Below, piece after piece: positions 1 through 58,056 of a DNA stretch of 64,000 nucleotides. The notes below the pieces were generated by a model, which searched no databases, was not told the DNA's origin, and saw only the letters and a program-made list of their open reading frames with translations. The position numbers and the translations under genes are program-made. Numbering within the stretch: the first letter of the stretch is position 1; the number at the start of each line of letters is the position of its first letter. Source of the DNA: Candidatus Nanopelagicales bacterium (GTDB lineage Bacteria > Actinomycetota > Actinomycetes > S36-B12 > UBA10799). The stretch is from NCBI GenBank assembly GCA_037045455.1, contig JBAOIN010000003.1, forward strand, positions 14,410 through 78,409, written 5' to 3'.

Positions 1-101
1 ACGCACCGACCGGAGTTGTCCGCAAACTGACAGCCGATGACGACGACGAGGTGCGCCGGGCCGCGCAGGAGAATCACCGGACGCCGAAGAAGGTCAAGTG
101 A
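1..101 (+). CDS. 3' end of an upstream CDS cut by the window edge (unknown function)
   Basis: Open frame from position 3 to TGA 99-101 (...DDDDEVRRAAQENHRTPKKVK*). The stop overlaps the GTG start of the next gene (GTGA). No family recognised. Confidence 0.3.
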   Translation, partial: APTGVVRKLTADDDDEVRRAAQENHRTPKKVK

Positions 102-1031
102 CCCTGGCCACCCTGCGCCGGGCGGAGGTGGCCGACCTGCGCTGGCGAGTGCGTCCGGATCCGGTTTTGCAACCACCCTTCCCGTCGCCCGTGATCGCCG
201 ACCCCACCTTCCTGCCGCCGGATCAGACTCCGGGCGGTGATTGGCGGTTATGGGCGCATTCCCTGCTCGGCTTGCATGCCTATCGCAGTGACGACGGCGT
301 GCAATGGCAGGGTGCCGGGACTGTGACACGCAACGCGCTGCGCGGGCAGGTGACGGCCCACGCTGGGCGGTACCGCCTGGCCTACGAGAAGACCCGCCTG
401 TTCATGCCGATCGGTGTGCCCTGGCTGTCCTGGATCGAATCGCGCACGTCCTTGGATCTGCAGACCTGGGGTCCGCCGAGCCGCTTGCTGGAACCGAGCC
501 TGCCCTGGCATGCGTCCGGGCGCAGTCGAGCCGTCTCCAACCCGTGCCTGGTGCCGCTGTCCGATGGCAAGTGGCGGCTGTACTACTCCGCCGGGTCTGA
601 CGCTGCTGCCGGATTGCGGGTTCAACGAGCCCACGTGGATCGGCGTGGCCGAAGGCCCTGGCCCAGACGGCCCATTCGAGTCGCGCCCCGAGCCATTGCT
701 GGGTCCGGGAGACGGTCCCGCGTCGCTGTGTGCCGGGGCCCTCAAGGTCCTGCGCGTGGCCGACGGGTGGGTCGGGTTTCAGAACGCGATCACCTGGGAC
801 GGCAGGCACTCCGGGTCGGAGATCTGGGTGCTGGGCTCGGCCGACGGGCTGAAGTGGGAGGTGCTCTCGGATCGGCCCGTGCTGGCGCCCACGGGCAGCG
901 GCTGGATGGCCACGCACGTTTACGCGTTGGACGTCCGGGATACCCCGGACGGACCGCGCATGTACTTCAACGCTCGGGATGGCTACCACTGGACCCGGGG
1001 TAGAGAGCGAATCGGTTTCGCGACCGTCTAG
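98..1031 (+). CDS. Beta-propeller glycosyl-hydrolase-like protein, reading frame interrupted near 596
   Basis: ORF-track frames 98-1003 and 414-1031 join into one continuous protein (...GKWRLYYSAG | LTLLPDCGFNEPTWIGVAEG...MYFNARDGYHW...). The frame switches at an apparent extra T at about 596. The family call (GH43/32-like propeller) rests on weak motif resemblance only. Confidence 0.55.
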
Positions 1032-1046
1032 GGGTGCGTGCAAGAT

Positions 1047-1120
1047 CGTTTGTCGCGTTGTTGGTGCTAAACCCGGCGTGTCGCGCCGACAACGCAACAG
1101 CCAGGGCAACTTCGCGACAA
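1047..1120 (+). repeat. Family A nested-palindrome intergenic repeat, copy 1
   Basis: cgTTTGTCGCGTTGTTGG-10nt-GGCGTGTCGCGCCGACAACGCAACAG-6nt-CAACTTCGCGACAA. It aligns along its full length with copies at 32414, 40615 and 52337(rc). It starts 16 nt after the stop at 1031. Confidence 0.8.
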
Positions 1121-1251
1121 TGCGGCGCAGTTCGGCCCACCGCGAGCCGAGCGCCCGGGCCCGATGGACCACAGTCGGCCGCGGTGCGGCCGAGCCCCCG
1201 GCAGGAACCGTCGGCCCTGCGGGCCTCCTCCCGAATCCTGCAGCATGGCAC

Positions 1252-1285: not shown

Positions 1286-1286
1286 G

Positions 1287-1358
1287 TGCCCCCGGCAGGA
1301 TTCGAACCTGCGCGCATGGCTCCGGAGGCCACTGCTCTATCCCCTGAGCTACGGGGGC
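1287..1358 (-). tRNA. tRNA-Arg (anticodon CCG)
   Basis: The reverse complement folds by hand into a 72-nt cloverleaf: GCCCCCG-TA-GCTC-AGGGGATA-GAGC-A-GTGGC-CTCCGGA-GCCAT-GCGC-GCAGG-TTCGAAT-CCTGC-CGGGGGC-A. The anticodon loop CT-CCG-GA gives CCG. CCA is not encoded. Confidence 0.93.
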
Positions 1359-9991: not shown

Positions 9992-11581
9992 TTGACTGAC
10001 ACCACACTCGAAGAGCAGCCCGCGACCAAGCGCAAGGGACTGTCCAGCATGCTGCTGGCCGACCTGCGCAAGCTGGCTGCCGACCAGGGCATTTCCGGTG
10101 CTTCGGCCATGCGCAAGAGCGAACTCATCGCCGCGCTGCAGGGCAACGGCAGCCCCACCCAGGCGAAGGCCGATAAACAGCAGCCACAGCAAAAGCAGCA
10201 GCCGGCGCCCGCCGACGCCTCCGCCGACTCGCAGTCTGGGGGGCAGTCCGGCGAAGAGGAAACCCGCCGCGACCAGAACCAGCAGAACCAGAACCAGAAC
10301 CAGCAGAATCAGCAGAACCGCGACGGCAATCGCAACCGCCGCCGCCGCGGGCGTGACCGCAACCGCGAGCGGCCACGGCGTGACGAGGGTGAGTCCACTG
10401 ACGTGACCGAGGACGAGGTGCTCGTGCCCGTGGCCGGCATTCTCGACGTTCTCGACAACTACGCCTTCCTTCGCACCACCGGCTACCTGCCCGGCCCGAC
10501 CGACGCCTACCTCGGACTCGGTCTGGTGAAGAAGTACGCCCTGCGCAAGGGTGACCACATCGTGGGTGCCATCCGCCCGCAACGCGAGAACGAGAACTCC
10601 CGGCAGAAGTACAACCCGCTGGTGCGCATCGACAAGGTCAACGGGCTGGACCCCGAGAAGGCCCGCGAGCGCAAGGAGTTCGGCAAACTCACCCCGCTCT
10701 ACCCGCAGCAGCGGCTGCGGCTGGAAGGTGAGCCCAACAACCTCACCACTCGGATCATCGACCTGGTCGCGCCGATCGGCAAGGGCCAGCGCGGTCTGAT
10801 CGTCTCCCCGCCGAAGGCCGGCAAGACGATGGTGCTGCAGCGGATCGCCAACGCGATCACCACGAACAACCCCGAGGTCCACCTCATGGTCGTGCTCGTC
10901 GACGAGCGCCCCGAAGAGGTCACGGACATGAAGCGGTCGGTGAAGGGTGAGGTCATCGCCTCGACGTTCGACCGTCCCGCCGACGACCACACCACGGTGG
11001 CTGAACTGGCCATCGAGCGCGCCAAGCGGCTGGTCGAGATGGGGCAGGACGTCGTGGTTCTGCTCGACTCGATGACCCGCCTGGGCCGTGCCTACAACCT
11101 GTCCGCCCCCGCATCGGGCCGGATCCTGTCCGGTGGTGTGGACTCCGCGGCGTTGTACCCGCCGAAGAAGTTCTTCGGGGCTGCCCGCAACATCGAGGAG
11201 GGCGGCTCGCTGACCATCCTTGCCACGGCGCTGGTGGAGACCGGCTCCCGCATGGACGAGGTCATCTTCGAGGAGTTCAAGGGCACCGGAAACATGGAGC
11301 TCAAGCTCGACCGGCGGCTGGCCGACAAGCGAGTCTTCCCGGCTGTCGACGTCGACGCCTCCGGCACTCGCAAGGAAGAGCTGCTCATGACCAAGGAGGA
11401 GCTCGCGATCGTCTGGAAATTGCGCCGCGTTCTGCACGCACTGGACACCCAGCAGGGGATCGAGTTGCTCATCTCCAAGTTGCGCGAGACCAGCAGCAAC
11501 TACGAGTTCCTGCGGCAGGTGCAGTCCACGACTCCGGCCGGCCTCGAGGCAGAGGCCCCCGGGCCGGGCGACGTGCTGTAA
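9992..11581 (+). CDS. rho: Transcription termination factor Rho with a Q/N- and R-rich N-terminal insertion
   Basis: Has the Rho_N block LADLRKLAADQGISGASAMRKSELIAAL, an RNA-binding CSD-like region, Walker A GKGQRGLIVSPPKAGKT and Walker B VVLLDSMTRL. TTG 9992 with an RBS was chosen inside ORF 8885-11581. Confidence 0.93.
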   Translation: MTDTTLEEQPATKRKGLSSMLLADLRKLAADQGISGASAMRKSELIAALQGNGSPTQAKADKQQPQQKQQPAPADASADSQSGGQSGEEETRRDQNQQNQNQNQQNQQNRDGNRNRRRRGRDRNRERPRRDEGESTDVTEDEVLVPVAGILDVLDNYAFLRTTGYLPGPTDAYLGLGLVKKYALRKGDHIVGAIRPQRENENSRQKYNPLVRIDKVNGLDPEKARERKEFGKLTPLYPQQRLRLEGEPNNLTTRIIDLVAPIGKGQRGLIVSPPKAGKTMVLQRIANAITTNNPEVHLMVVLVDERPEEVTDMKRSVKGEVIASTFDRPADDHTTVAELAIERAKRLVEMGQDVVVLLDSMTRLGRAYNLSAPASGRILSGGVDSAALYPPKKFFGAARNIEEGGSLTILATALVETGSRMDEVIFEEFKGTGNMELKLDRRLADKRVFPAVDVDASGTRKEELLMTKEELAIVWKLRRVLHALDTQQGIELLISKLRETSSNYEFLRQVQSTTPAGLEAEAPGPGDVL

Positions 11582-14363: not shown

Positions 14364-15178
14364 CGTTGCGCCGGGAGGTTGCCGCGCGCTTGCAGGCCGC
14401 CGGTGTGCCGTCGCCGGATGCCGATGCCGCCGCGCTGATCGCCTTTGTCGCGGGAAGCCGCGCGTTCGACCCCCGTTTGGACGCCGAGCAGCAACAACAG
14501 CTCGAAGCGCTGGTGGTTCGGCGCTGCGCGCGGGAGCCGCTGCAGCACCTGACGGGAGTCGCCGGGTTCCGGTATCTCGACATCGAGGTCGGGCCCGGAG
14601 TGTTCGTGCCCAGACCGGAGACCGAAGTCCTCGTCGACGTCGCCCTGCAAGAACCGTTCGAGAGTGCGATCGACCTGTGTACCGGTTCGGGGGCTATTGC
14701 GCTCGCGCTGGCCACGGAGGCCGGCGCGAAAGTCACTGGCGTCGAGATGCAGGAGCAGGCCTTCGCGTGGGCGCAGCGCAACGCCAAGGGCCGGATCGCC
14801 CTGCTGCGGGCTGATGTGTGCCAACCGCTGGATCTGTCGCCGGTCGATCTCGTGGTCAGCAATCCGCCGTACATCCCGCAGGCGATGGTCCCGCGCGACC
14901 CCGAGGTGGCCAAACACGATCCCAAACTCGCTCTGTACGGCGGCGAGGACGGCATGCAGGTGATCCGCTGTGTCGTGGCGCGGGCCCGTGAGCTGCTCAA
15001 GGCGGGTGGCCGCTTGCTGATCGAGCACGGGGAACACCAGGCGCCTGACGTGCGTGCGCTGCTCGGCGGTTTCGAGCAGGTGCAGACCTGGCAGGATCTC
15101 ACCGGACGCGATCGCGTCACCGGTGGCCGCTATGTATTCCCAGGTCGGGCGGCGGAATCGCTCCGATACTCCAACTAG
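14360..15178 (+). CDS. prmC: Release-factor glutamine N5-methyltransferase PrmC (HemK)
   Basis: Has NPPY and the SAM-binding [10 protein letters not shown]. The GTG 14360 start overlaps the prfA stop. Confidence 0.9.
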
Positions 15179-21124: not shown

Positions 21125-21184
21125 TTCACCGTTTGTGCTTTGTTGCACCGTTCCGATCGGTGCAAAACTGTCGCAACGGTGAAA
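21125..21184. repeat. Family B nested-palindrome repeat, copy 1
   Basis: The outer stem TTCACCGTT pairs with AACGGTGAA. The inner perfect 8-bp hairpin is ttgcaccg-ttccgat-cggtgcaa. Lies in the divergent YrdC/glyA intergenic region. Confidence 0.75.
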
Positions 21185-21275
21185 CCAAAGCGCCCAAGCA
21201 CGCCGCGCGGCTTCATCAATGCCCGAACGGTCCGCGCGTACACTTGCCCCAAGACCGTTCGTCAGGAGCCCATCC

Positions 21276-31454: not shown

Positions 31455-31509
31455 CGTTTTGTCGCATTGTCGTCGTTAACTTCGGCGTGTCGTGACAACT
31501 TCGCGACAG
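31455..31509 (+). repeat. Family A repeat, copy 2 (short variant lacking the central CGACAACGCGACAG module)
   Basis: cgTTTTGTCGCATTGTCGTCG-8nt-GGCGTGTCGTGA-CAACTTCGCGACAG. It ends 4 nt before the stop of the minus-strand DUF559 gene. Confidence 0.75.
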
Positions 31510-31512
31510 AAG

Positions 31513-32413: not shown

Positions 32414-32490
32414 GGTTTTGTTGCGTTGTTGGCGTCAACTGCGGCGTGTCGGGCCGACTTCGCAACAATGCGGTCAACTTCGCAACAAAA
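32414..32490 (+). repeat. Family A repeat, copy 3
   Basis: ggTTTTGTTGCGTTGTTGG-10nt-GGCGTGTCGGGCCGACTTCGCAACAA-6nt-CAACTTCGCAACAAAA. It ends 4 nt before the pduO stop. Confidence 0.8.
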
Positions 32491-32493
32491 CCC

Positions 32494-33051
32494 CTAGCGC
32501 TCGCCGCCCGGCACCCACAGCACATCGCCACCCGGGTTGCACACCCGCGCCAGGATGAACAGCAGGTCGCTTAAACGATTCAAGTAGTGCGCGGTCATGT
32601 CGTTCATCGAGTCGCCGTATTCGCCGAACGCCCGCCACGTGGCCCGTTCAGCCCGGCGGGCTACCGTGCGGGCAACGTGCAACAGGGCCGACGCCGGCGT
32701 CCCCCCGGGGAGGATGAACGAGCGCAGGTTCGGCAGGTCGGCGTTGAACCGGTCGCAGTCGGCCTCCAACGCATCGACGTAATCCTGGGTCACGCGCAAC
32801 CCCTTCGCCGGCAGCGGCGTGCACAGATCGGCGCCCACGTCGAACAGCTCGTTTTGCACCCGCGACAGCACCTCGACCACCTCGGCCGGCGGCTCACCCA
32901 GCGCGAGCACCACGCCGATCGCACTGTTCGCCTCGTCCACGTCGGCGTAGGCCTCCAATCGCAAATCGGTCTTGGAGGTCCGCGAGAAGTCACCGAGCGC
33001 GGTCGAACCGTCGTCGCCGGTCCGGGTGTAGATCCGGGTCAGGTTCACCAT
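32494..33051 (-). CDS. pduO: ATP:cob(I)alamin adenosyltransferase, PduO type
   Basis: Has IYTRTGDDGST, then ...ANSAIG..., ...QNELFDVGADL... and ...FILPGG...LHVARTVARRAER blocks. Same position as Rv1314c next to murA. Confidence 0.9.
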   Translation of the reverse strand: MVNLTRIYTRTGDDGSTALGDFSRTSKTDLRLEAYADVDEANSAIGVVLALGEPPAEVVEVLSRVQNELFDVGADLCTPLPAKGLRVTQDYVDALEADCDRFNADLPNLRSFILPGGTPASALLHVARTVARRAERATWRAFGEYGDSMNDMTAHYLNRLSDLLFILARVCNPGGDVLWVPGGER

Positions 33052-38954: not shown

Positions 38955-39042
38955 TGTCCGGATTTGCAACGCGTTGGACGCCCGGGCACTGATTGCCGGC
39001 GATTCCGGCCGAGTGGGCGCGAACGTGTTGCAAATCCGGACA
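38955..39042. repeat. Family C terminal-inverted-repeat element, copy 1
   Basis: tgtccggatttgcaacgcgtt (38955) pairs with aacgtgttgcaaatccggaca (to 39042), 20 of 21 complementary, around a 46-nt core containing gattccggcc. Confidence 0.8.
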
Positions 39043-39092
39043 CGACCCCGCCCGAGGAAGAACGCAACGCCCGACCGCACTAGCCTCGAAAC

Positions 39093-39932: not shown

Positions 39933-40600
39933 GGCTGGTCGTTGCCACCTGCCAGGTTGACTACGTCGGCCGGCTCAGTGCCCACTTGCCGATGGCCCGA
40001 CGGCTGCTGCTGGTGAAGGCCGACGGGTCGGTGTCGGTGCATGCGGATGACCGCGCCTACAAACCGCTGAACTGGATGAGCCCGCCCTGCACGCTCGTCG
40101 AGATCGACGACCCTGACGACACCCTGTGGGAGGTCACGAACAAGGCGGGGGAGCGGTTGCTGATCCGGATCGCGGAGATCGAGCACGACTGGTCCGGGAT
40201 GCTGGGCCAGGACCCAGGGTTGATCAAGGACGGTGTCGAGGCGCATCTGCAGGAGTTGCTCGCCGAACACGTCCACACGTTCGGCGAGGGCTGGACGCTC
40301 GTGCGCCGGGAGTACCCGACGGCGATCGGGCCGGTGGATCTGTTGTGCCGCGATTCCGAGGGCACGGCCATTGCGGTGGAGGTCAAGCGGCGCGGCGAGA
40401 TCGACGGTGTCGAGCAGTTGACGCGCTATCTGGAACTGCTGAACCGGGATCCGCTGCTGGCGCCGGTAACCGGGGTGTTCGCGGCCCAGGAGATCAAACC
40501 GCAGGCGCGTACGTTGGCGCAGGACCGGGGAATCCGGTGCCTGGAGGTCGACTATGACGCTCTGCGGGGTTACGACGACGAGGAATCCCGGCTGTTCTGA
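39929..40600 (+). CDS. nucS: Endonuclease NucS (EndoMS, mismatch-specific)
   Basis: MRLVVA.C.V.Y.GRL...[12 protein letters not shown]...KPLNWM... and the C-terminal PD-(D/E)XK block [19 protein letters not shown] are characteristic. Confidence 0.92.
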
Positions 40601-40614
40601 GGTCGCCGGACGCG

Positions 40615-40690
40615 GCGTTTTGTTGCGATGTCGTTGGTATCCTCGGCGTGTCGCAACGACAACGCGACAGCCCGGACAACTTCGCGACAA
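40615..40690 (+). repeat. Family A repeat, copy 4 (most complete)
   Basis: gcgTTTTGTTGCGATGTCGTTGG-7nt-GGCGTGTCGCAACGACAACGCGACAG-6nt-CAACTTCGCGACAA. It fills the gap between the convergent nucS stop (40600) and the GNAT stop (40692). Confidence 0.85.
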
Positions 40691-40691
40691 T

Positions 40692-41537
40692 TCAGTTCAG
40701 ATCGATCGCCCAGTGCGTGAACGAGCGGTCCAGTGTCATGCCCAGGTGCTGGTAGACCTCCAGCGCGCCGGTATTGGAGTCGGTCGCGAGCCGCACCTGC
40801 GGGAAGCCTTCGCGAAAAGCCCGATCGCGGGCAGCAGTGATCAGTTCCCGGGCCAGGCCCTGCCGCCGGAATGCCGGATCCACCGCCAGACTGTCCACCC
40901 ACACCTCATCCACGCAGATCAGGAACGCCGCGGCGACTATCCGGTCACCCTGTCGGATCACCAAGAGATCCTCGGGCTTGAAGTCCGATCGCTCAACGGT
41001 CTGGGCGCGCCAGCGCGCGAGGGACACCGGGGTGCGGTCGCGGAACTCCGTGAAGCACCGTTCGATCAGCTCGAGTGCGGCATCAGCCTCGTCACCGGCT
41101 GGCTGCGCATGATGCGTTGCCGCGGCCGCCGGGATCGTCAACATCCACGACGTGTACCGCGGGGTGTACCCGAGCCGGGTGAACCACTGTGCGACATCGC
41201 GGCGTTCGTCGTAGATGCTTTCCCCGATCCGCGGTGCCCCGCGCTGCCGGGAACGCCACACCGACCAGCGCTCCAGCCAGCTCCCGATGCCCTGGCCGCG
41301 CGCATCCGGGTGGACGTCGGCCCAGCGTTTGCGAAGGTCCCATAGCAGGCACCACCCGATGATCCGGCCGCCGCTCACCACCACGCAGGCATCCCGCTCC
41401 CGGTCGATCTGCGCCAGATCCGCGCGGACGTCGTCGGCGTCGAGCATCGCCTCACCGGTGTCGGCGAGTTCGCAGGCGTTGACCATCGCGACCACCTCGG
41501 GGATGTCGTCGTCGGTCAGGGGTCGGGCGTGCCACAC
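40692..41537 (-). CDS. GNAT family N-acetyltransferase (two-domain)
   Basis: Has two acetyltransferase-like halves. The acetyl-CoA binding motifs are HPDARGQGIGSWL and DPAFRRQGLAREL. Confidence 0.8.
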   Translation of the reverse strand: MWHARPLTDDDIPEVVAMVNACELADTGEAMLDADDVRADLAQIDRERDACVVVSGGRIIGWCLLWDLRKRWADVHPDARGQGIGSWLERWSVWRSRQRGAPRIGESIYDERRDVAQWFTRLGYTPRYTSWMLTIPAAAATHHAQPAGDEADAALELIERCFTEFRDRTPVSLARWRAQTVERSDFKPEDLLVIRQGDRIVAAAFLICVDEVWVDSLAVDPAFRRQGLARELITAARDRAFREGFPQVRLATDSNTGALEVYQHLGMTLDRSFTHWAIDLN

Positions 41538-43250: not shown

Positions 43251-43350
43251 GGTGAAGTCGCAATCCATGAGCATTCTGGGCATGGGTTAGCACGCCGGAC
43301 GCTGAAAACCCGCCCGTTGTGCTCACGGATGCCCGGAATGCTCACGGATC
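43251..43350 (+). repeat. Family D 100-nt long-hairpin repeat, copy 1
   Basis: Aligns gap-free with 56031-56130 (79 of 100 identical by hand count). The arm gagcattctgggcatgggttagc pairs with gctcacggatgcccggaatgctc. Starts 7 nt after the stop at 43244. Confidence 0.85.
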
Positions 43351-43410
43351 GGCCGGGCAACGCGCGGCTTGCTGGCGCGTTGTAGCCGGAACGAGTGGTT
43401 CGCTAAGGAC

Positions 43411-43678: not shown

Positions 43679-43724
43679 TTCACCGTTGTCGAAGAACGGT
43701 GATGGATTGTCCAAACGGTGAAGT
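43679..43724. repeat. Family B repeat, copy 2 (short)
   Basis: TTCACCGTT-gtcgaag-AACGGTGA-tggattgtcc-AAACGGTGAAGT, between convergent stops at 43659 and 43736. Confidence 0.7.
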
Positions 43725-49126: not shown

Positions 49127-49215
49127 TGTCCGGAATTGCAACGCGTTCGGCGAAGAAGGGCGCTTTCGGGGCCGAATCCGGCGGTTTTGCCCCTAACGTT
49201 TTGCGAATCCGGACA
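49127..49215. repeat. Family C terminal-inverted-repeat element, copy 2
   Basis: tgtccggaattgcaacgcgtt (49127) pairs with aacgttttgcgaatccggaca (to 49215). The core contains ggccgaatccggc. A degenerate fragment, tgtccggtcttgcagcatttgcggg, follows at 49317. Confidence 0.8.
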
Positions 49216-49461
49216 CGCACCCGCAGTCAGGTACCCCATCAGCAGAAGGTACGCAGACTCGACCTGCTGCACCGCCGACTGCATCAGAAGAATTATCGAA
49301 AGTGGTGAAAGCAGTCTGTCCGGTCTTGCAGCATTTGCGGGTCTAGTGCCTGTCGCCGACTATCAGCGATGGCCGCAAGGGCTCCGGCGCAACCACGCCG
49401 CGGCCGGTCGCCCATCTACCCCGGGGTTGCCGGGCCACCGCTCATGGGAAAGGCTGAGGGC

Positions 49462-50602: not shown

Positions 50603-52333
50603 GTGCAGGTCGTGACGGATGCCGTGACGATCCGCAAGGGGGACCGCGAGATTCTCGCGGGCGTTTCGCTCGGGGTCGGTGATGGTGACCGGGTGGGCGT
50701 CGTGGGTCGCAACGGTGCCGGCAAATCCACGCTGCTGCGCGCCCTGGCCGGGACCGAGACGCCGGATTCTGGCCGGGTGGTCGCCACCACGGGCACCACG
50801 ATCCGGCTCGTCAGTCAGCACGACCGGCTGCCTTCCGGCACCGTTTTGCAGGCCTTGTTCGGCGATTCGCAGACTCACGAATGGGCAACCGATCCGCGTA
50901 TCCGCAGCATCGTCAACGGGTTGCTCGACCCGCAATGGCTCGACCGTGAGACCTCGGCGCTGTCCGGAGGTCAGGCGCGCCGCGTGGCGCTGGCTTCGGC
51001 TCTGGCCGCCACGCCCGATCTGCTCCTGCTCGACGAGCCGACGAACCACTTGGACATCGAGGCGGTGCAGTGGCTCGCCGAGCACCTGCGCGCCTGGCCC
51101 AGGGGCCGCCGCGCGCTGGTGGTCGTCACCCATGACCGGTGGTTCCTGGATGAGGTGACCGAGCGCACCTGGGAAGTGGTCCGCGGCGACGTCGAGCAGT
51201 ACGACGGGGGCTACGCGGCCTACGTGCTGGCCAAGGCCGAACGCGACGCCGCCAAGCAGGCTGCTGAGGCCCGTCGGCAGAACCTGCTGCGCAAGGAGTT
51301 GGCGTGGTTGCGGCGAGGTCCGCCCGCCCGGACCTCCAAACCCCGGTTCCGGCAGGAGGCAGCGTTGGCGCTGATCGCCGACGAGCCGCCGGCACGAGAC
51401 CGGCTCCAGCTGCAGCAAGTGAGCATGAACCGACTGGGCAAGCAGGTCATCGACCTCGACGAAGTCACCCTGCGCCCGGCGCCGGGAGCGCCGATCGTGC
51501 TGCAGGACCAGACGTGGGGGCTAGGGCCGGGAGATCGGATCGGGCTGCTGGGGCCGAACGGGGTCGGCAAGACGACGTTGCTGCGGTTGGTGCTCGGGAC
51601 GCTGGCACCCGATGCGGGCCGGGTGCGGCGAGGGAAGACCGTTCTGCCCGCCCTCGTGGATCAGCGGTTGCCGGTCGTGGATCCCGAGGTCCGCGTGCTG
51701 CCCTGGCTGGAACAGGCGGGACAGCGGGTCGTCGTGGCTTCGGGGGACGAGCGCACGCCGGGGCAGTTGCTGGAGGAGTTCGGCTTCACCGGTGATGCCC
51801 CGTGGAAGCGGCTGGGTGAGGTGTCCGGCGGGGAGTTGCGCCGCTTGCACCTGATGCGCACGTTCCTGTCCGGGGCGAACCTGTTGATGCTCGATGAACC
51901 GACCAACGACCTGGACACCGAGACGCTCACGGTTCTGGAGGACACCCTGGACGGCTGGCCCGGCACGTTGGTGGTGGTGTCGCACGATCGCTACTTCCTC
52001 GAGCGGGTGTGTGACGACTTCTGGACGGTTCGCGACCGGCGGCTTGCGCACCTGCCCGGTGGGATCGAGGAGTACCTGCGCCACGAGCCGGCTGTCGCGG
52101 TCGCGGCGACGCAGCGAACTGGCGGCGACACCCGGGCCGTTCGCAAGGAACTGGCCAGGGTTGAGCGGGAGTTGAGCAAGGCAACGGCGCGGGTCGCGGC
52201 CATCCACCAGCAGATGGCCGAGGCCGCCACTGACCCCGCCGCGCTGGTCGGTCTGGGTCAGGACCTGGCGTCGGCCGAGGCCTCAGTCGCTGACCTCGAG
52301 GAGCGCTGGCTGGAGCTGGCCGACCAAGTCTGA
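50603..52333 (+). CDS. ABC-F family ATPase (two ABC domains, no TM)
   Basis: Has Walker A GRNGAGKST and GPNGVGKTT, signatures LSGGQARRV and VSGGELRRL, an inter-domain linker and a C-terminal coiled coil. Confidence 0.9.
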   Translation: MQVVTDAVTIRKGDREILAGVSLGVGDGDRVGVVGRNGAGKSTLLRALAGTETPDSGRVVATTGTTIRLVSQHDRLPSGTVLQALFGDSQTHEWATDPRIRSIVNGLLDPQWLDRETSALSGGQARRVALASALAATPDLLLLDEPTNHLDIEAVQWLAEHLRAWPRGRRALVVVTHDRWFLDEVTERTWEVVRGDVEQYDGGYAAYVLAKAERDAAKQAAEARRQNLLRKELAWLRRGPPARTSKPRFRQEAALALIADEPPARDRLQLQQVSMNRLGKQVIDLDEVTLRPAPGAPIVLQDQTWGLGPGDRIGLLGPNGVGKTTLLRLVLGTLAPDAGRVRRGKTVLPALVDQRLPVVDPEVRVLPWLEQAGQRVVVASGDERTPGQLLEEFGFTGDAPWKRLGEVSGGELRRLHLMRTFLSGANLLMLDEPTNDLDTETLTVLEDTLDGWPGTLVVVSHDRYFLERVCDDFWTVRDRRLAHLPGGIEEYLRHEPAVAVAATQRTGGDTRAVRKELARVERELSKATARVAAIHQQMAEAATDPAALVGLGQDLASAEASVADLEERWLELADQV

Positions 52334-52336
52334 CCG

Positions 52337-52440
52337 CTGTCGCGAAGTTGCCCGCACTGTCGCGTTGTCGTCACGACACGCCGAGATTACGGACGACATC
52401 GCGACAAAACGATTACGGACGACATCGCGACAAAACAGCG
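52337..52440 (-). repeat. Family A repeat, copy 5 (reverse orientation, with an internal perfect 26-bp tandem duplication)
   Basis: The reverse complement reads TTTTGTCGCGATGTCGTCCGTAATC (x2)-GGCGTGTCGTGACGACAACGCGACAG-6nt-CAACTTCGCGACAG. The duplicated unit gattacggacgacatcgcgacaaaac sits at 52385-52410 and 52411-52436. Confidence 0.85.
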
Positions 52441-52444
52441 ATGG

Positions 52445-52837
52445 CTAGCGGGCGACAACCTTGTCCGGTATGACCCGCACCACGACCCGCACGTTGTCGG
52501 TGCCGTCGTCGGCGGGATAGCGCTCCCAGCCCTGGTAGGTCCCAGCGAACTTGTCGATGAGTTCCCGGCCACCCTCGCGGGTCATCTCAACGTGCCCCCG
52601 GACCTCCACGTAGGAGTACGGGTTGTCCGTGTCGTACACCAGCACGGTCGCGCGTGGATCCCGCACGAGGTTCTGGTGCTTGCGCCGGCCCTCGACCGTG
52701 GAGATCAGGATGTCGTCGCCGTCGCGCTCGTACCAGACCACGCTGCTCTGTGGCTGGCCGCTCGGCTCGATCGTGGTGACCACGGCGAACTGCTTGGGCT
52801 TGTCCAGCAGGGACTTGGCTGTGTCGTTGAGCATCAC
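52445..52837 (-). CDS. PPOX-class (pyridoxamine 5'-phosphate oxidase-like) probable F420-dependent enzyme
   Basis: 130 aa: ...FAVVTTIEPSGQPQSSVVWYE.DGD.ILIST...RKHQNLVRDPRATV... split-barrel pattern. The GTG start overlaps the ccr stop (GTGA). Confidence 0.8.
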   Translation of the reverse strand: MMLNDTAKSLLDKPKQFAVVTTIEPSGQPQSSVVWYERDGDDILISTVEGRRKHQNLVRDPRATVLVYDTDNPYSYVEVRGHVEMTREGGRELIDKFAGTYQGWERYPADDGTDNVRVVVRVIPDKVVAR

Positions 52838-54302: not shown

Positions 54303-55916
54303 ATGAGGCGTCTGTGGGCCCCGCTGGGTGCAGGAGCATTGCTGGTTGGTGGCGTCGTGATGGCCGCGCCAGCCAGTGCCGAGCCCTACCCCTACACGAT
54401 CGAGAAGGAGAACACCGGCCCGGCCTCGATCGTGGCGGGTTCGGACCAAGTCGCCGAGTTCACGATCACCGTCTCGTACAACAGCGAGCCGCAACCCATC
54501 GAGGGACCCGCGATGGCGTCCTTCTGGGACACCCTGCCTTACGGATTGGTGCTCGCTGAGATTCCCGCAGGGTGTACGGGCACGGTCGGGACCAGCCAGC
54601 TGGAGTGCGACGTGGACTTCAGCGAGGAGAACTCGGCCAAGGTCGTGGTGAAAGCCACCGCCCAGGACTGGGCGCGACCCGGGACGTATACGAACTGCGC
54701 CTATCTTGCCCTGGGTGCCTCCGAATTCGATCCTCAGCAGTACCAGGTCTGCGGGTCGGGCGCGCCGCCGGTTGAGCAGATCGACCAGACCGTGGCCTCG
54801 GCCTCGGTCGAGGTGACCAACGTCGCGGACATGCAGCTGGCTGCCAGCCAGCCTGGTCAGGTCGACCCTGGTGCCGGTGCCCAGATCACGTGGACGGCCA
54901 GCAACGGCGGGCCCTCGGGCGCAGACCTGCCGCTGACCCTGACTGCGACCCTGCCCGCAGGGGTCACCTGGGTCGGTGGGGGCGCAGCGCCGTGGGAGTG
55001 CAGCGCGAGTGGCCAGGATGTGACCTGCACGTTCAACCCGACTCCTCCGGACGCGCCGCAGATGATCTGCGCTCCCGTGATGGGTGCCGAGAACATCGGC
55101 TGCCCGGTGCTCGTGGTCCCGCCCGGCGCGGAGATCCCACCCGTGACCTGGAACGTCATGACAGCCAAGCCGGGCACGGTGGCGAAGTATGACGTGACCG
55201 CCAAGGTGACCTCGCTGACCGAGGACAGCACGCCTGCGAACAACTCCGCCGTCTCGACGATCAACGTCACCCCTGTCGATCTTGCGGTTTCCAAGTCCGC
55301 AGGGTCCCCGGTGTTCGTGGGAGACGAGGCGACCTGGACGGTGAACGTGGGCAACGTCGGCACGGTCGACGACGCCGGCAAGCTGACCGTCGTGGACACG
55401 CTACCCAGCGCTGCGACGTTCGTTGCCGCCTCCGGTGACGGGTGGACGTGTGAGGCCGCAGGGCAGAAGGTCACCTGCACGCGCGACGGTCTGGCCAAGG
55501 GTGCCAGCACTGACATCGTGGTGCGCTCGAAGATGACCAGCCGCGGGGATGCGAAGAACTCGGCAACTGTCTCCTCGCAGTCCTACGAAAAGAACACGGC
55601 GAACAACAGCGCCGAGAAGACGGTGAAGGTGGTCCGGACCGAACAGACGGCCGCGGGCCTGCCCGCCACGCCGACCCGTGTGAAGTCGGGCAAGACCGAG
55701 CAGGGTCAGAAGCTGACGACTCGAGTGCGGTGCCGGCCCGTCAAGGCCAGTGCGGCTGGTGAGGTGTCGTTCTGCAAGGTCACGCGCGGCAACGGCGTAG
55801 TACGGATCAAGGTCAAGGGCAGCCAGCCGATGAAGGTCACGGTTATTCAGACCGCGCGCGGCACGGCGAAGCTGAAGCCGTTCGTGCAGCGCAAGACCTA
55901 CATCGTCAAGCCGTAG
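54303..55916 (+). CDS. Secreted repeat protein with DUF11-like (conserved repeat domain) beta-sandwich modules
   Basis: Has the signal peptide MRRLWAPLGAGALLVGGVVMAAPASA. Repeated modules of the type ...ITWT.SNGGPS.A..L.L..TLPAGVT... and ...WTVNVGNVGTVDDAG.LTVVDTLP.... Confidence 0.65.
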   Translation: MRRLWAPLGAGALLVGGVVMAAPASAEPYPYTIEKENTGPASIVAGSDQVAEFTITVSYNSEPQPIEGPAMASFWDTLPYGLVLAEIPAGCTGTVGTSQLECDVDFSEENSAKVVVKATAQDWARPGTYTNCAYLALGASEFDPQQYQVCGSGAPPVEQIDQTVASASVEVTNVADMQLAASQPGQVDPGAGAQITWTASNGGPSGADLPLTLTATLPAGVTWVGGGAAPWECSASGQDVTCTFNPTPPDAPQMICAPVMGAENIGCPVLVVPPGAEIPPVTWNVMTAKPGTVAKYDVTAKVTSLTEDSTPANNSAVSTINVTPVDLAVSKSAGSPVFVGDEATWTVNVGNVGTVDDAGKLTVVDTLPSAATFVAASGDGWTCEAAGQKVTCTRDGLAKGASTDIVVRSKMTSRGDAKNSATVSSQSYEKNTANNSAEKTVKVVRTEQTAAGLPATPTRVKSGKTEQGQKLTTRVRCRPVKASAAGEVSFCKVTRGNGVVRIKVKGSQPMKVTVIQTARGTAKLKPFVQRKTYIVKP

Positions 55917-55919
55917 GCA

Positions 55920-55991
55920 GACAAACACCCCCGTTTGTGCGATTCACCCCCGGTTGAACTGGGGTGAATCGCACAACTGGGGGTGTTTGTC
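55920..55991. repeat. 31-nt-arm near-perfect hairpin directly after the DUF11 gene (element E)
   Basis: gacaaacacccccgtttgtgcgattcacccc-cggttgaact-ggggtgaatcgcacaactgggggtgtttgtc, 29 of 31 complementary. Starts 4 nt after the stop. Shares GTTTGTGCGA with family B. Confidence 0.8.
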
Positions 55992-56030: not shown

Positions 56031-56130
56031 CGTGAAATCGCAATCGGTGAGCATACCGGGCATCGGTTAGCATTCCCGGCGCCAAAACCCCGCCCGTGCG
56101 GCTAACAGGTGCCCGGAATGCTCACGAATC
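56031..56130 (+). repeat. Family D 100-nt long-hairpin repeat, copy 2
   Basis: Gap-free alignment to 43251-43350 (79 of 100). The arm gagcataccgggcatcggttagc pairs with gctaacaggtgcccggaatgctc. Confidence 0.85.
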
Positions 56131-56161
56131 AGCCCTTTAGGGCATCAAGAAATTGCGGATC

Positions 56162-57997: not shown

Positions 57998-58056
57998 TTC
58001 ACCGTTTGTGCGAATGCACCGTTCCGAACGGTGAAGTCTGCGCCAAACGGTGAAGT
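57998..58056. repeat. Family B nested-palindrome repeat, copy 3
   Basis: The outer stem TTCACCGTTTG pairs with CAAACGGTGAA (perfect 11 bp). The inner hairpin is caccgtt-ccg-aacggtg. It fills the gap between convergent stops at 57982 and 58060. Confidence 0.8.

Follow-up and report, generated by a model that had tools for sequence, protein, structure and literature searches.

The window, by which we mean the whole 64-kb stretch of DNA analyzed here, has a GC content of 64 to 68% and the gene order seen in Mycobacteriales, with the atp operon, a cob(I)alamin adenosyltransferase gene, murA, nucS, and a gene of the Rv1322 family. The NucS protein encoded here shares no more than 78% identity with the NucS proteins of the GTDB species representatives retrieved and 75 to 76% with those of mycobacteria. 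The 91-nt spacer between the stop codon of nucS (40598 to 40600) and that of a convergent gene for a GNAT acetyltransferase on the minus strand (40692 to 40694) is filled by a full-length, 77-nt copy of a palindromic repeat, Family A (40616 to 40692, plus strand). Four other copies are present in the window. The copy at 1046 to 1122 (plus strand, full length) lies between the end of an open reading frame (98 to 1003, plus strand) and a tRNA-Arg(CCG) gene (1286 to 1358, minus strand), and its orthologue is present in contigs L089 and L125. A short copy of 57 nt (31455 to 31511, plus strand), in which one right-arm unit is missing, separates the stop codons of atpC and of a convergent gene of unknown function. 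The full-length copy at 32414 to 32492 (plus strand) is 1 nt away from the stop codon of the cob(I)alamin adenosyltransferase gene (32494 to 33051, minus strand; assigned by Pfam) and upstream of the next minus-strand gene. The fifth copy (52335 to 52436) is on the minus strand, carries a 26-nt duplication, and is flanked by the stop codons of an ABC-F gene (50603 to 52333, plus strand) and a PNPOx-like gene (52445 to 52837, minus strand), both named from Pfam matches.

A covariance model (R1) trained on the four full-length window copies was used to scan the whole window with filters off. It recovered exactly the five copies, four on the plus strand and one on the minus strand, that an initial annotation had reported from the bare sequence, all of them at the places given there. 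The full-length copies scored 90 to 95 bits (E of approximately 1e-19), with 95 bits and an E value of 4.9e-20 for the copy downstream of nucS, 92.1 bits for that at 1046, 90.1 bits for that at 32414, and 95.3 bits for positions 52335 to 52411 of the duplicated copy, and the short copy scored 42.8 bits. No sixth site was found in the 64-kb window, where the remaining matches had scores of 13.6 bits or less. A de novo search for dispersed repeats in the window also ranked this family first (D1). There are four exact matches to the 3' module, CAACTTCGCGACA, and 12 when up to two mismatches are allowed, compared to an expectation of 1.9 and with none of 100 shuffles reaching 12. The string GGCGTGTCG is identical in all five window copies; on its own it is not enriched in the window (42 matches with at most one mismatch versus 59.6 expected) and is informative only in context. 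The four full-length copies can be aligned without gaps over 77 columns, with a mean identity of 85%.

The Family A element is a degenerate 77-nt palindrome made of 13-nt units and centered on alignment column 40. The building block is CNACNNCGCRACA, with TGTYGCGWTGTYG as its complement, and a full-length copy consists of G-TTTT, a full left unit, an 11-nt linker, a diverged unit that forms the CGGCGTGTCG center, a 3-nt loop, a unit, a 7-nt linker, a further unit, and AAAA-C, in that order. Downstream of nucS, a T-tract (40618 to 40621) precedes the outer left unit TGTTGCGATGTCG (40621 to 40633), the last T of the tract being base 1 of the unit. The center CGGCGTGTCG (40644 to 40653) is the diverged inner left unit and pairs across the loop (40654 to 40656) with the first bases of the inner right unit CGACAACGCGACA (40657 to 40669). 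The outer right unit CAACTTCGCGACA (40677 to 40689) begins 20 nt downstream of the inner right unit and is complementary to the outer left unit; all of these features are on the plus strand. In the consensus structure, columns 5 to 12 pair with columns 68 to 75 and columns 15 to 18 pair with columns 62 to 65. The G-TTTT and AAAA-C ends also pair with each other, and the terminal inverted repeats (TTTTGTYGCG...CGCRACAAAA) extend over 10 to 12 bp and have TG...CA tips. The complementarity of 5' and 3' modules that had been noted at the outset holds, as approximately 88% of the cells of the alignment pair in the nested structure, and the description as a family of modular nested palindromes is well founded. 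The picture of conserved modules joined by variable linkers needs one correction: the modules are as described, and the linkers vary in sequence only, the 5' linker always being 11 nt long and the 3' linker 7 nt across the 77 gap-free columns.

Variation in length involves whole units. The 57-nt form is the full element minus exactly 20 nt, that is, one right-hand unit (the equivalent of 40657 to 40669) and the adjoining 7-nt linker. The copy at 31455 had been described as a deletion variant, which is accurate as to the missing segment, but it belongs to a recurrent size class that is present at 10 or more other sites. The duplication variant reported at 52337 proved to have its 5' module repeated exactly, as two adjacent segments of 26 nt (52385 to 52410 and 52411 to 52436; repeat family D7), by which this copy gained a left-hand unit, and the same duplication is present in the orthologous contigs L090 and L093. 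Gains and losses of 20 and 26 nt fit slippage or recombination between units.

The window contains several other repeats. A second dispersed repeat of approximately 103 nt (43252 to 43354 and 56032 to 56134; 80% identical) has the inverted segments GAGCATTCTGGGCA and TGCCCGGAATGCTC and no Rfam match at the gathering threshold. A 31-nt motif with a direct repeat of AACGGTGAA(G) is found at 21155 to 21185, 43694 to 43724, and 58026 to 58056; the copies at 21155 and 43694 are just upstream of, or overlap, an apparent gene start, and that at 58026 is in a gene boundary region. A small regulon might use this motif as an operator or promoter element. There is also a 52-nt pair (39000 to 39051 and 49173 to 49224; 77% identical) that includes AACGTKTTGCRAATCCGGACACG, and immediately after a gene ending at 55916 is a near-perfect palindrome (55920 to 55991), unrelated to Family A, with 31-nt arms that are 94% complementary and 10 nt apart.

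Outside the window, a metagenome scan with a pattern that fits all five window copies returned 55 contig stretches, in which R1 made 97 matches. After the five window copies were added and duplicates merged, 50 distinct sequences at 43 distinct genomic sites remained, in contigs of the same species cluster, so the enrichment beyond the window that the initial annotation had called for is present. The exact core pattern had 0 matches in the GTDB species representatives, and R1 gave nothing above 19.9 bits around nucS in 80 other actinobacterial genomes (1.375 Mb), a set that includes Mycobacterium, Mycolicibacterium, Rhodococcus, Gordonia, Nocardia, and Streptomyces; the Mycobacterium and Mycolicibacterium loci, in which it found nothing, make up approximately 160 kb of this set. 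A plasmid collection and viral contigs contained no Family A match. Rfam identified only a tRNA at the gathering threshold, its best match over the element being 16 bits (E of 1.3), and a literature search with the motif strings returned primer matches only. Family A is a lineage-specific repeat of an uncultured high-GC actinobacterium known from metagenomes.

The placement of the copies with respect to genes was determined for 34 sites at which the coding strand and frame of the flanks could be inferred from third-position GC content. Flanking genes are convergent at 13 of these, tandem at 18, and divergent at 3, and at 31 of the 34 the element adjoins a stop codon, typically at a distance of 0 to 30 nt, with a few copies overlapping the stop codon by up to 3 nt. 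Among the tandem sites there is no preferred orientation with respect to the upstream gene (10 versus 8), and orientation is not biased with respect to GC skew (16 versus 25), giving no support to a mechanism tied to the replication strand. The flanks differ at every site, and the neighbors are ordinary metabolic and housekeeping genes (encoding patatin, DUF2252, MFS, ADH, aminotransferase, arginine deiminase, OTCase, and similar proteins). No transposase was found among the flanking genes or the genes between neighboring copies.

Comparison of the nucS locus among relatives suggests how a copy may have arrived. The 91-nt spacer of the window corresponds to only 15 nt in L145, in which NucS is 89% identical and the gene order is the same, and the difference of 76 nt matches the length of the element. 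In L146 and L147 (NucS 91% identical), nucS and the downstream gene overlap by 15 nt and there is no element. From this sequence comparison the nucS copy was probably gained by insertion, deletion in the relatives being the alternative; the spacers are too diverged for exact insertion boundaries to be read from them. The view that the conserved modules speak for selection "rather than plain duplication" is accordingly misleading, since the empty nucS site of two close relatives points to copy-and-insert spread. Target-site duplications were not detected in 26 full-length copies at boundary offsets of 0 to 7 nt and lengths of 2 to 8 nt; the strongest signal, a 2-nt match, was seen in 10 of the 26 copies, compared to 3.6 expected, and nothing longer stood out. 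Insertion into preexisting hairpins was considered as well and was set aside, as beyond G-TTTT/AAAA-C the pairing of the flanks equaled that of a permuted-flank control. Among 85 orthologous strain pairs, taken from contigs that had been chosen for carrying the element, there was no insertion polymorphism. An autonomous insertion sequence with the same ends was not found in the window, the listed syntenic loci of relatives, the plasmids, or the viral contigs. RAYT-type genes, the transposase genes of REP systems, are usually single-copy. A tblastn search of approximately 0.74 Mb of sequence from the lineage, a small part of the genome, with an approximate E. coli RAYT query yielded nothing below an E value of 0.7, which makes for a weak test.

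Related species carry families with the same architecture and different units. In L145, the spacers downstream of atpC and cobO, which hold Family A copies in the window, contain elements with the same two-plus-two arrangement, with the sister units GTTTGCGACGTTGTTG and CAACAACGTCGCAAAC and a center that differs from that of Family A. Relative to Family A, TYG is replaced by CGA in both left units, and this is matched by the replacement of CRA by TCG in both right units. A triplet changed on both arms indicates that either the complementarity of the arms or the recognition of all units by one reader has been kept between the families. A further sister-family variant is present in L148 (NucS 84% identical), and the loci L142 to L144 (NucS 87% identical) have another nested palindrome, TTAGAGGTTGTGCTGTTGGTTAGCGAAACAACGYGTGGATTCGCTAACG.GGAC.ACAACCTCTAAC, with two copies in tandem downstream of nucS (10712 to 10782 and 10881 to 10951 in L142; 10690 to 10760 and 10815 to 10885 in L144). 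A variant with a different center also occurs within Family A contigs themselves (L102, L105, and L119). Right after the atpC stop codon of L145 (430 to 478), and just before the sister repeat, is a GC-rich hairpin with a perfect 17-bp stem (CACACGACGGTGGGCGC...GCGCCCACCGTCGTGTG) and TT after it; the actual termination of the atp operon may take place here.

Two observations concern the integrity of individual copies. A copy that extends over 3936 to 3992 in L099 and 3675 to 3801 in L139 is cut after the center in L120 (1174 to 1241) and followed there by unrelated sequence, which would fit a rearrangement or deletion that had its breakpoint within the element. A scaffold gap of L148 (a run of N, 14844 to 14943) falls inside a sister-family copy. 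With a gap inside one copy and a truncated copy at a breakpoint, these repeats seem to disturb assemblies.

As RNA, the window copies have predicted folding energies of -17 to -52 kcal/mol (z of -1.2 to -5.1), and both strands give stable hairpins. The values are -29.5 kcal/mol (z of -2.15) for the copy downstream of nucS, -38.7 kcal/mol (z of -5.08) for that at 32414 to 32492, which has the fullest outer stem of all (GGTTTTGTTGCG...CGCAACAAAACC), and -52 kcal/mol (z of -4.83) for the duplicated copy. Folding as single-stranded DNA is also strong, with z values down to -4.6, and to -10 for the sister element of L145. There are two competing folds, since the left unit pairs equally well with either right-hand unit (88.9% versus 88.1% of cells paired), and the nested arrangement of the initial annotation is one of the two.

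Whether the structure itself is conserved was assessed with an alignment of 27 distinct full-length copies from unrelated loci (mean column identity, 87%) and 500 column-shuffle controls. For the nested structure, pairing and covariation were not above those of the shuffles, of which 317 and 275, respectively, were at least as high, and for the alternative fold, in which the 5' unit pairs with the middle unit, the corresponding numbers were 367 and 380. The covariation score of the nested fold was 0.066, compared to 0.067 in shuffles, with changes on both sides at only one pair. Stem positions are often unpaired (17-63 in 18 of the 27 copies; 34-47 and 37-43 in 10 copies each), and mutual information across columns gave weak signals only. 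The proposal that selection acts on structure within the family is not borne out for either fold, and variable positions break pairs freely. Judged from the right half of the element and from the window copies, what is conserved within Family A is the sequence of the units and not their base pairing. Columns 4 to 11, 14 to 18, and 30 to 38 of the metagenome copies were fixed by the search pattern, so a lack of variation in these columns says nothing about conservation; in the half that the pattern left free, the conserved columns are the CGCRACA heptamers and GGGCAAC. Divergence between orthologous strain pairs was 0.6% in the element and 1.1% in the flanks, values too low to be informative about constraint. 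Conservation centered on 13-nt units with 20-nt phasing fits recognition by a protein and, like the arm complementarity kept between sister families, counts in favor of the initial annotation.

Several explanations can account for parts of this evidence. One is that Family A is an RNA element of gene ends, kept for its function as a noncanonical, TRIT-like bidirectional terminator, as a barrier between convergent genes, or as a shield against 3' exonucleases. The positions next to stop codons and between convergent genes, the stable hairpins on both strands, and the compensating changes that keep the arms complementary between sister families all speak for such a role, and a precedent is TRIT, a conserved palindrome of gene termini of which M. 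tuberculosis has 147 copies (PMC3152330). However, both strands of Family A read 5'-UUUUG...hairpin...CAAAA-3', which places the U-tract 5' and the A-tract 3' of the hairpin, and the U-tract that mycobacterial RNA polymerase requires (PMC3993855) is missing after the hairpin. A terminator scan had flagged two copies at which a GC hairpin in the flank could use the T-tract of the element as its tail, an L-shaped arrangement that was rejected because it is not enriched over 45 copies (9 versus 6.2 ± 2.4 in shuffles). The absence of covariation within the family, the lack of an orientation preference relative to the upstream gene, and the existence of close relatives without a copy at nucS, where the genes are 15 nt apart or overlap, also count against a selected RNA element, and even predicted TRITs overlap just 2 to 4% of the mapped 3' ends of M. 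tuberculosis (bioRxiv 10.1101/2022.06.01.494293). Overall, we consider this explanation rather unlikely.

We find it distinctly improbable that the element is instead a double-stranded array of binding sites for a sequence-specific chromosomal protein of the nucleoid-associated or gyrase type, as proposed for E. coli BIMEs, at places where convergent transcription builds supercoiling. Conservation that follows the 13-nt units rather than pairing is what such an array would show, as are the spacing of units by 20 nt (approximately two helical turns), their two-fold symmetry, and the presence of the same variant in all four units of a sister family, which is expected with one reader protein. Nevertheless, neither a candidate protein nor a known binding motif was identified, and relatives that lack the nucS copy suggest that it was gained by insertion. 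Moreover, the units differ between species with NucS proteins that are 84 to 91% identical, a turnover that seems fast for the site of a housekeeping protein and would be more like that of a selfish element with its own enzyme. Descent from a longer known mobile element (an insertion sequence, a transposon, or a prophage), of which the copies would be fragments or ends, is highly improbable and largely refuted. The TG...CA ends, the terminal inverted repeats, and the several subterminal repeats would agree with such an origin, and subterminal repeats occur at the ends of some transposons. Against this, every copy is compact (57 to 102 nt), with unique flanks and ordinary metabolic neighbors, which also answers in the negative the question raised by the initial annotation of whether the copies are such fragments; there is no match to a plasmid, a viral contig, or an Rfam family; widely separated left and right ends are absent from the window and the listed syntenic loci of relatives; and there is no target-site duplication.

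The closest described systems include the REP and REPIN-RAYT elements of Proteobacteria (PMC3116915 and PMC3337134) and the BIME mosaics of E. coli. These too are short extragenic palindromes, with tens to hundreds of copies, in which inverted units form one long hairpin, target-site duplications are lacking, and mosaics arise by gain and loss of units, and they too form lineage-specific, vertically inherited sequence families sited after genes. With 43 sites, 88% of cells paired, and 31 of 34 copies next to a stop codon, Family A is likewise a population of many extragenic palindromes able to form a long hairpin. It differs in that its units are not hairpins themselves, that no RAYT gene was found with the approximate query, and that the host is an actinobacterium. 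REP units carry a conserved unpaired tetranucleotide tag, GTAG or CGTC, at one end (PMC3733652, in which Actinobacteria are not mentioned), whereas Family A has no GTAG, and CGTC is present solely inside the left arm (TGTCGTCG) of some copies. Family A resembles MITEs, such as the Correia elements of Neisseria, in being small and noncoding, in its 10- to 12-bp terminal inverted repeats with TG...CA tips, and in its probable intergenic insertion, predicted cotranscription with neighbors, and predicted hairpin formation. Unlike MITEs, it lacks target-site duplications, and the sequences searched contained no insertion sequence with matching ends that could be its parent; at 57 to 77 nt it is also far smaller than most of them.

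Two kinds of terminators invite comparison as well. TRIT, described for Mycobacterium with the RNIE program (PMC3152330), is a conserved, largely palindromic, bidirectional motif of gene termini in a high-GC actinobacterium, and its sequence conservation led the authors to propose a binding factor. It is reported to be restricted to Mycobacterium and to be centered within the coding sequence, approximately 8 nt ahead of the stop codon (PMC3152330), whereas Family A usually begins 0 to 30 nt after the stop codon and its host is not a Mycobacterium. The Mycobacterium and Mycolicibacterium loci have hairpins of the form CCTGNGCCCCCC-loop-GGGGGGCNCAGG in common (L016, 579 to 647, where they form a tandem pair, and L034, 54 to 86) that are unrelated in sequence to Family A and may be a mycobacterial gene-end motif, perhaps TRIT-like. 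A de novo search for hairpins common to the Mycobacterium loci yielded a motif, GCCCCCC-loop-GGGGGGC, that is likewise unrelated to Family A. Like intrinsic (Rho-independent) terminators, Family A places a GC-containing hairpin directly 3' of stop codons, often one common to two convergent genes. It is not a canonical terminator, because no U-tract follows the hairpin; on both strands the U-tract is 5' and the A-tract 3'. A scan with a terminator consensus found none formed by the stems of the element, which appears only as the T-tail of small flank hairpins.

We favor, with a probability of approximately 0.55, the reading of Family A as a trans-mobilized miniature of the REPIN/MITE kind, a nonautonomous palindromic repeat that adds hairpins to 3' untranslated regions (UTRs). 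The many copies at unrelated sites, the probable insertion at nucS, the unique flanks, the absence of coding capacity, the whole-unit insertions and deletions, the species-specific units, and the preference for gene ends all lead to this reading. Copies would arrive by insertion into very short spacers directly 3' of stop codons, without a detectable target-site duplication, and would then be passed on by vertical inheritance. The element would spread by means of a trans-acting protein that reads the 13-nt units or their single-stranded-DNA hairpin, by analogy with REP/REPIN elements and their single-copy transposase. Such a protein could also explain why the unit sequence differs from one related species to the next, with matching changes in the two arms. 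After insertion, a copy is likely to be transcribed within the 3' UTR of one or both neighbors and to fold into a hairpin of -17 to -52 kcal/mol, which may protect the 3' end or slow convergent read-through. This would be a side effect or a later co-option and not the reason for the conservation of the sequence. A selected role as a gene-end RNA hairpin or a protein-binding array, though less probable, is not exclusive of a mobile repeat. Since its ends carry neither GTAG nor CGTC, the weak search for a RAYT gene found none, and target-site duplications are lacking, Family A is best regarded as a new variety of small palindromic repeat and is not placed in any of the named classes. No repeat family of this type was found to have been described from this uncultured lineage of high-GC actinobacteria.

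Most work on small palindromic repeats has dealt with Proteobacteria. If Family A is merely another selfish miniature repeat, its value is modest and mainly one of cataloguing. Its copies lengthen the spacers between convergent genes and put strong hairpins in 3' UTRs, which is relevant to terminator prediction where canonical terminators are lacking. A bolder and quite speculative extension is that these are long-lived repeat populations, one variant per species, each coevolving with a candidate single-copy enzyme that reads the 13-nt units. They would then be an actinobacterial counterpart of REPIN-RAYT systems, possibly with an enzyme of another class, and the copies may have been co-opted as "U-tract-first" hairpins between convergent genes. 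Different units on the same architecture, arms that change in step, and an empty site in close relatives make these families a compact natural system for questions about the spread of such repeats and their coevolution with an enzyme.
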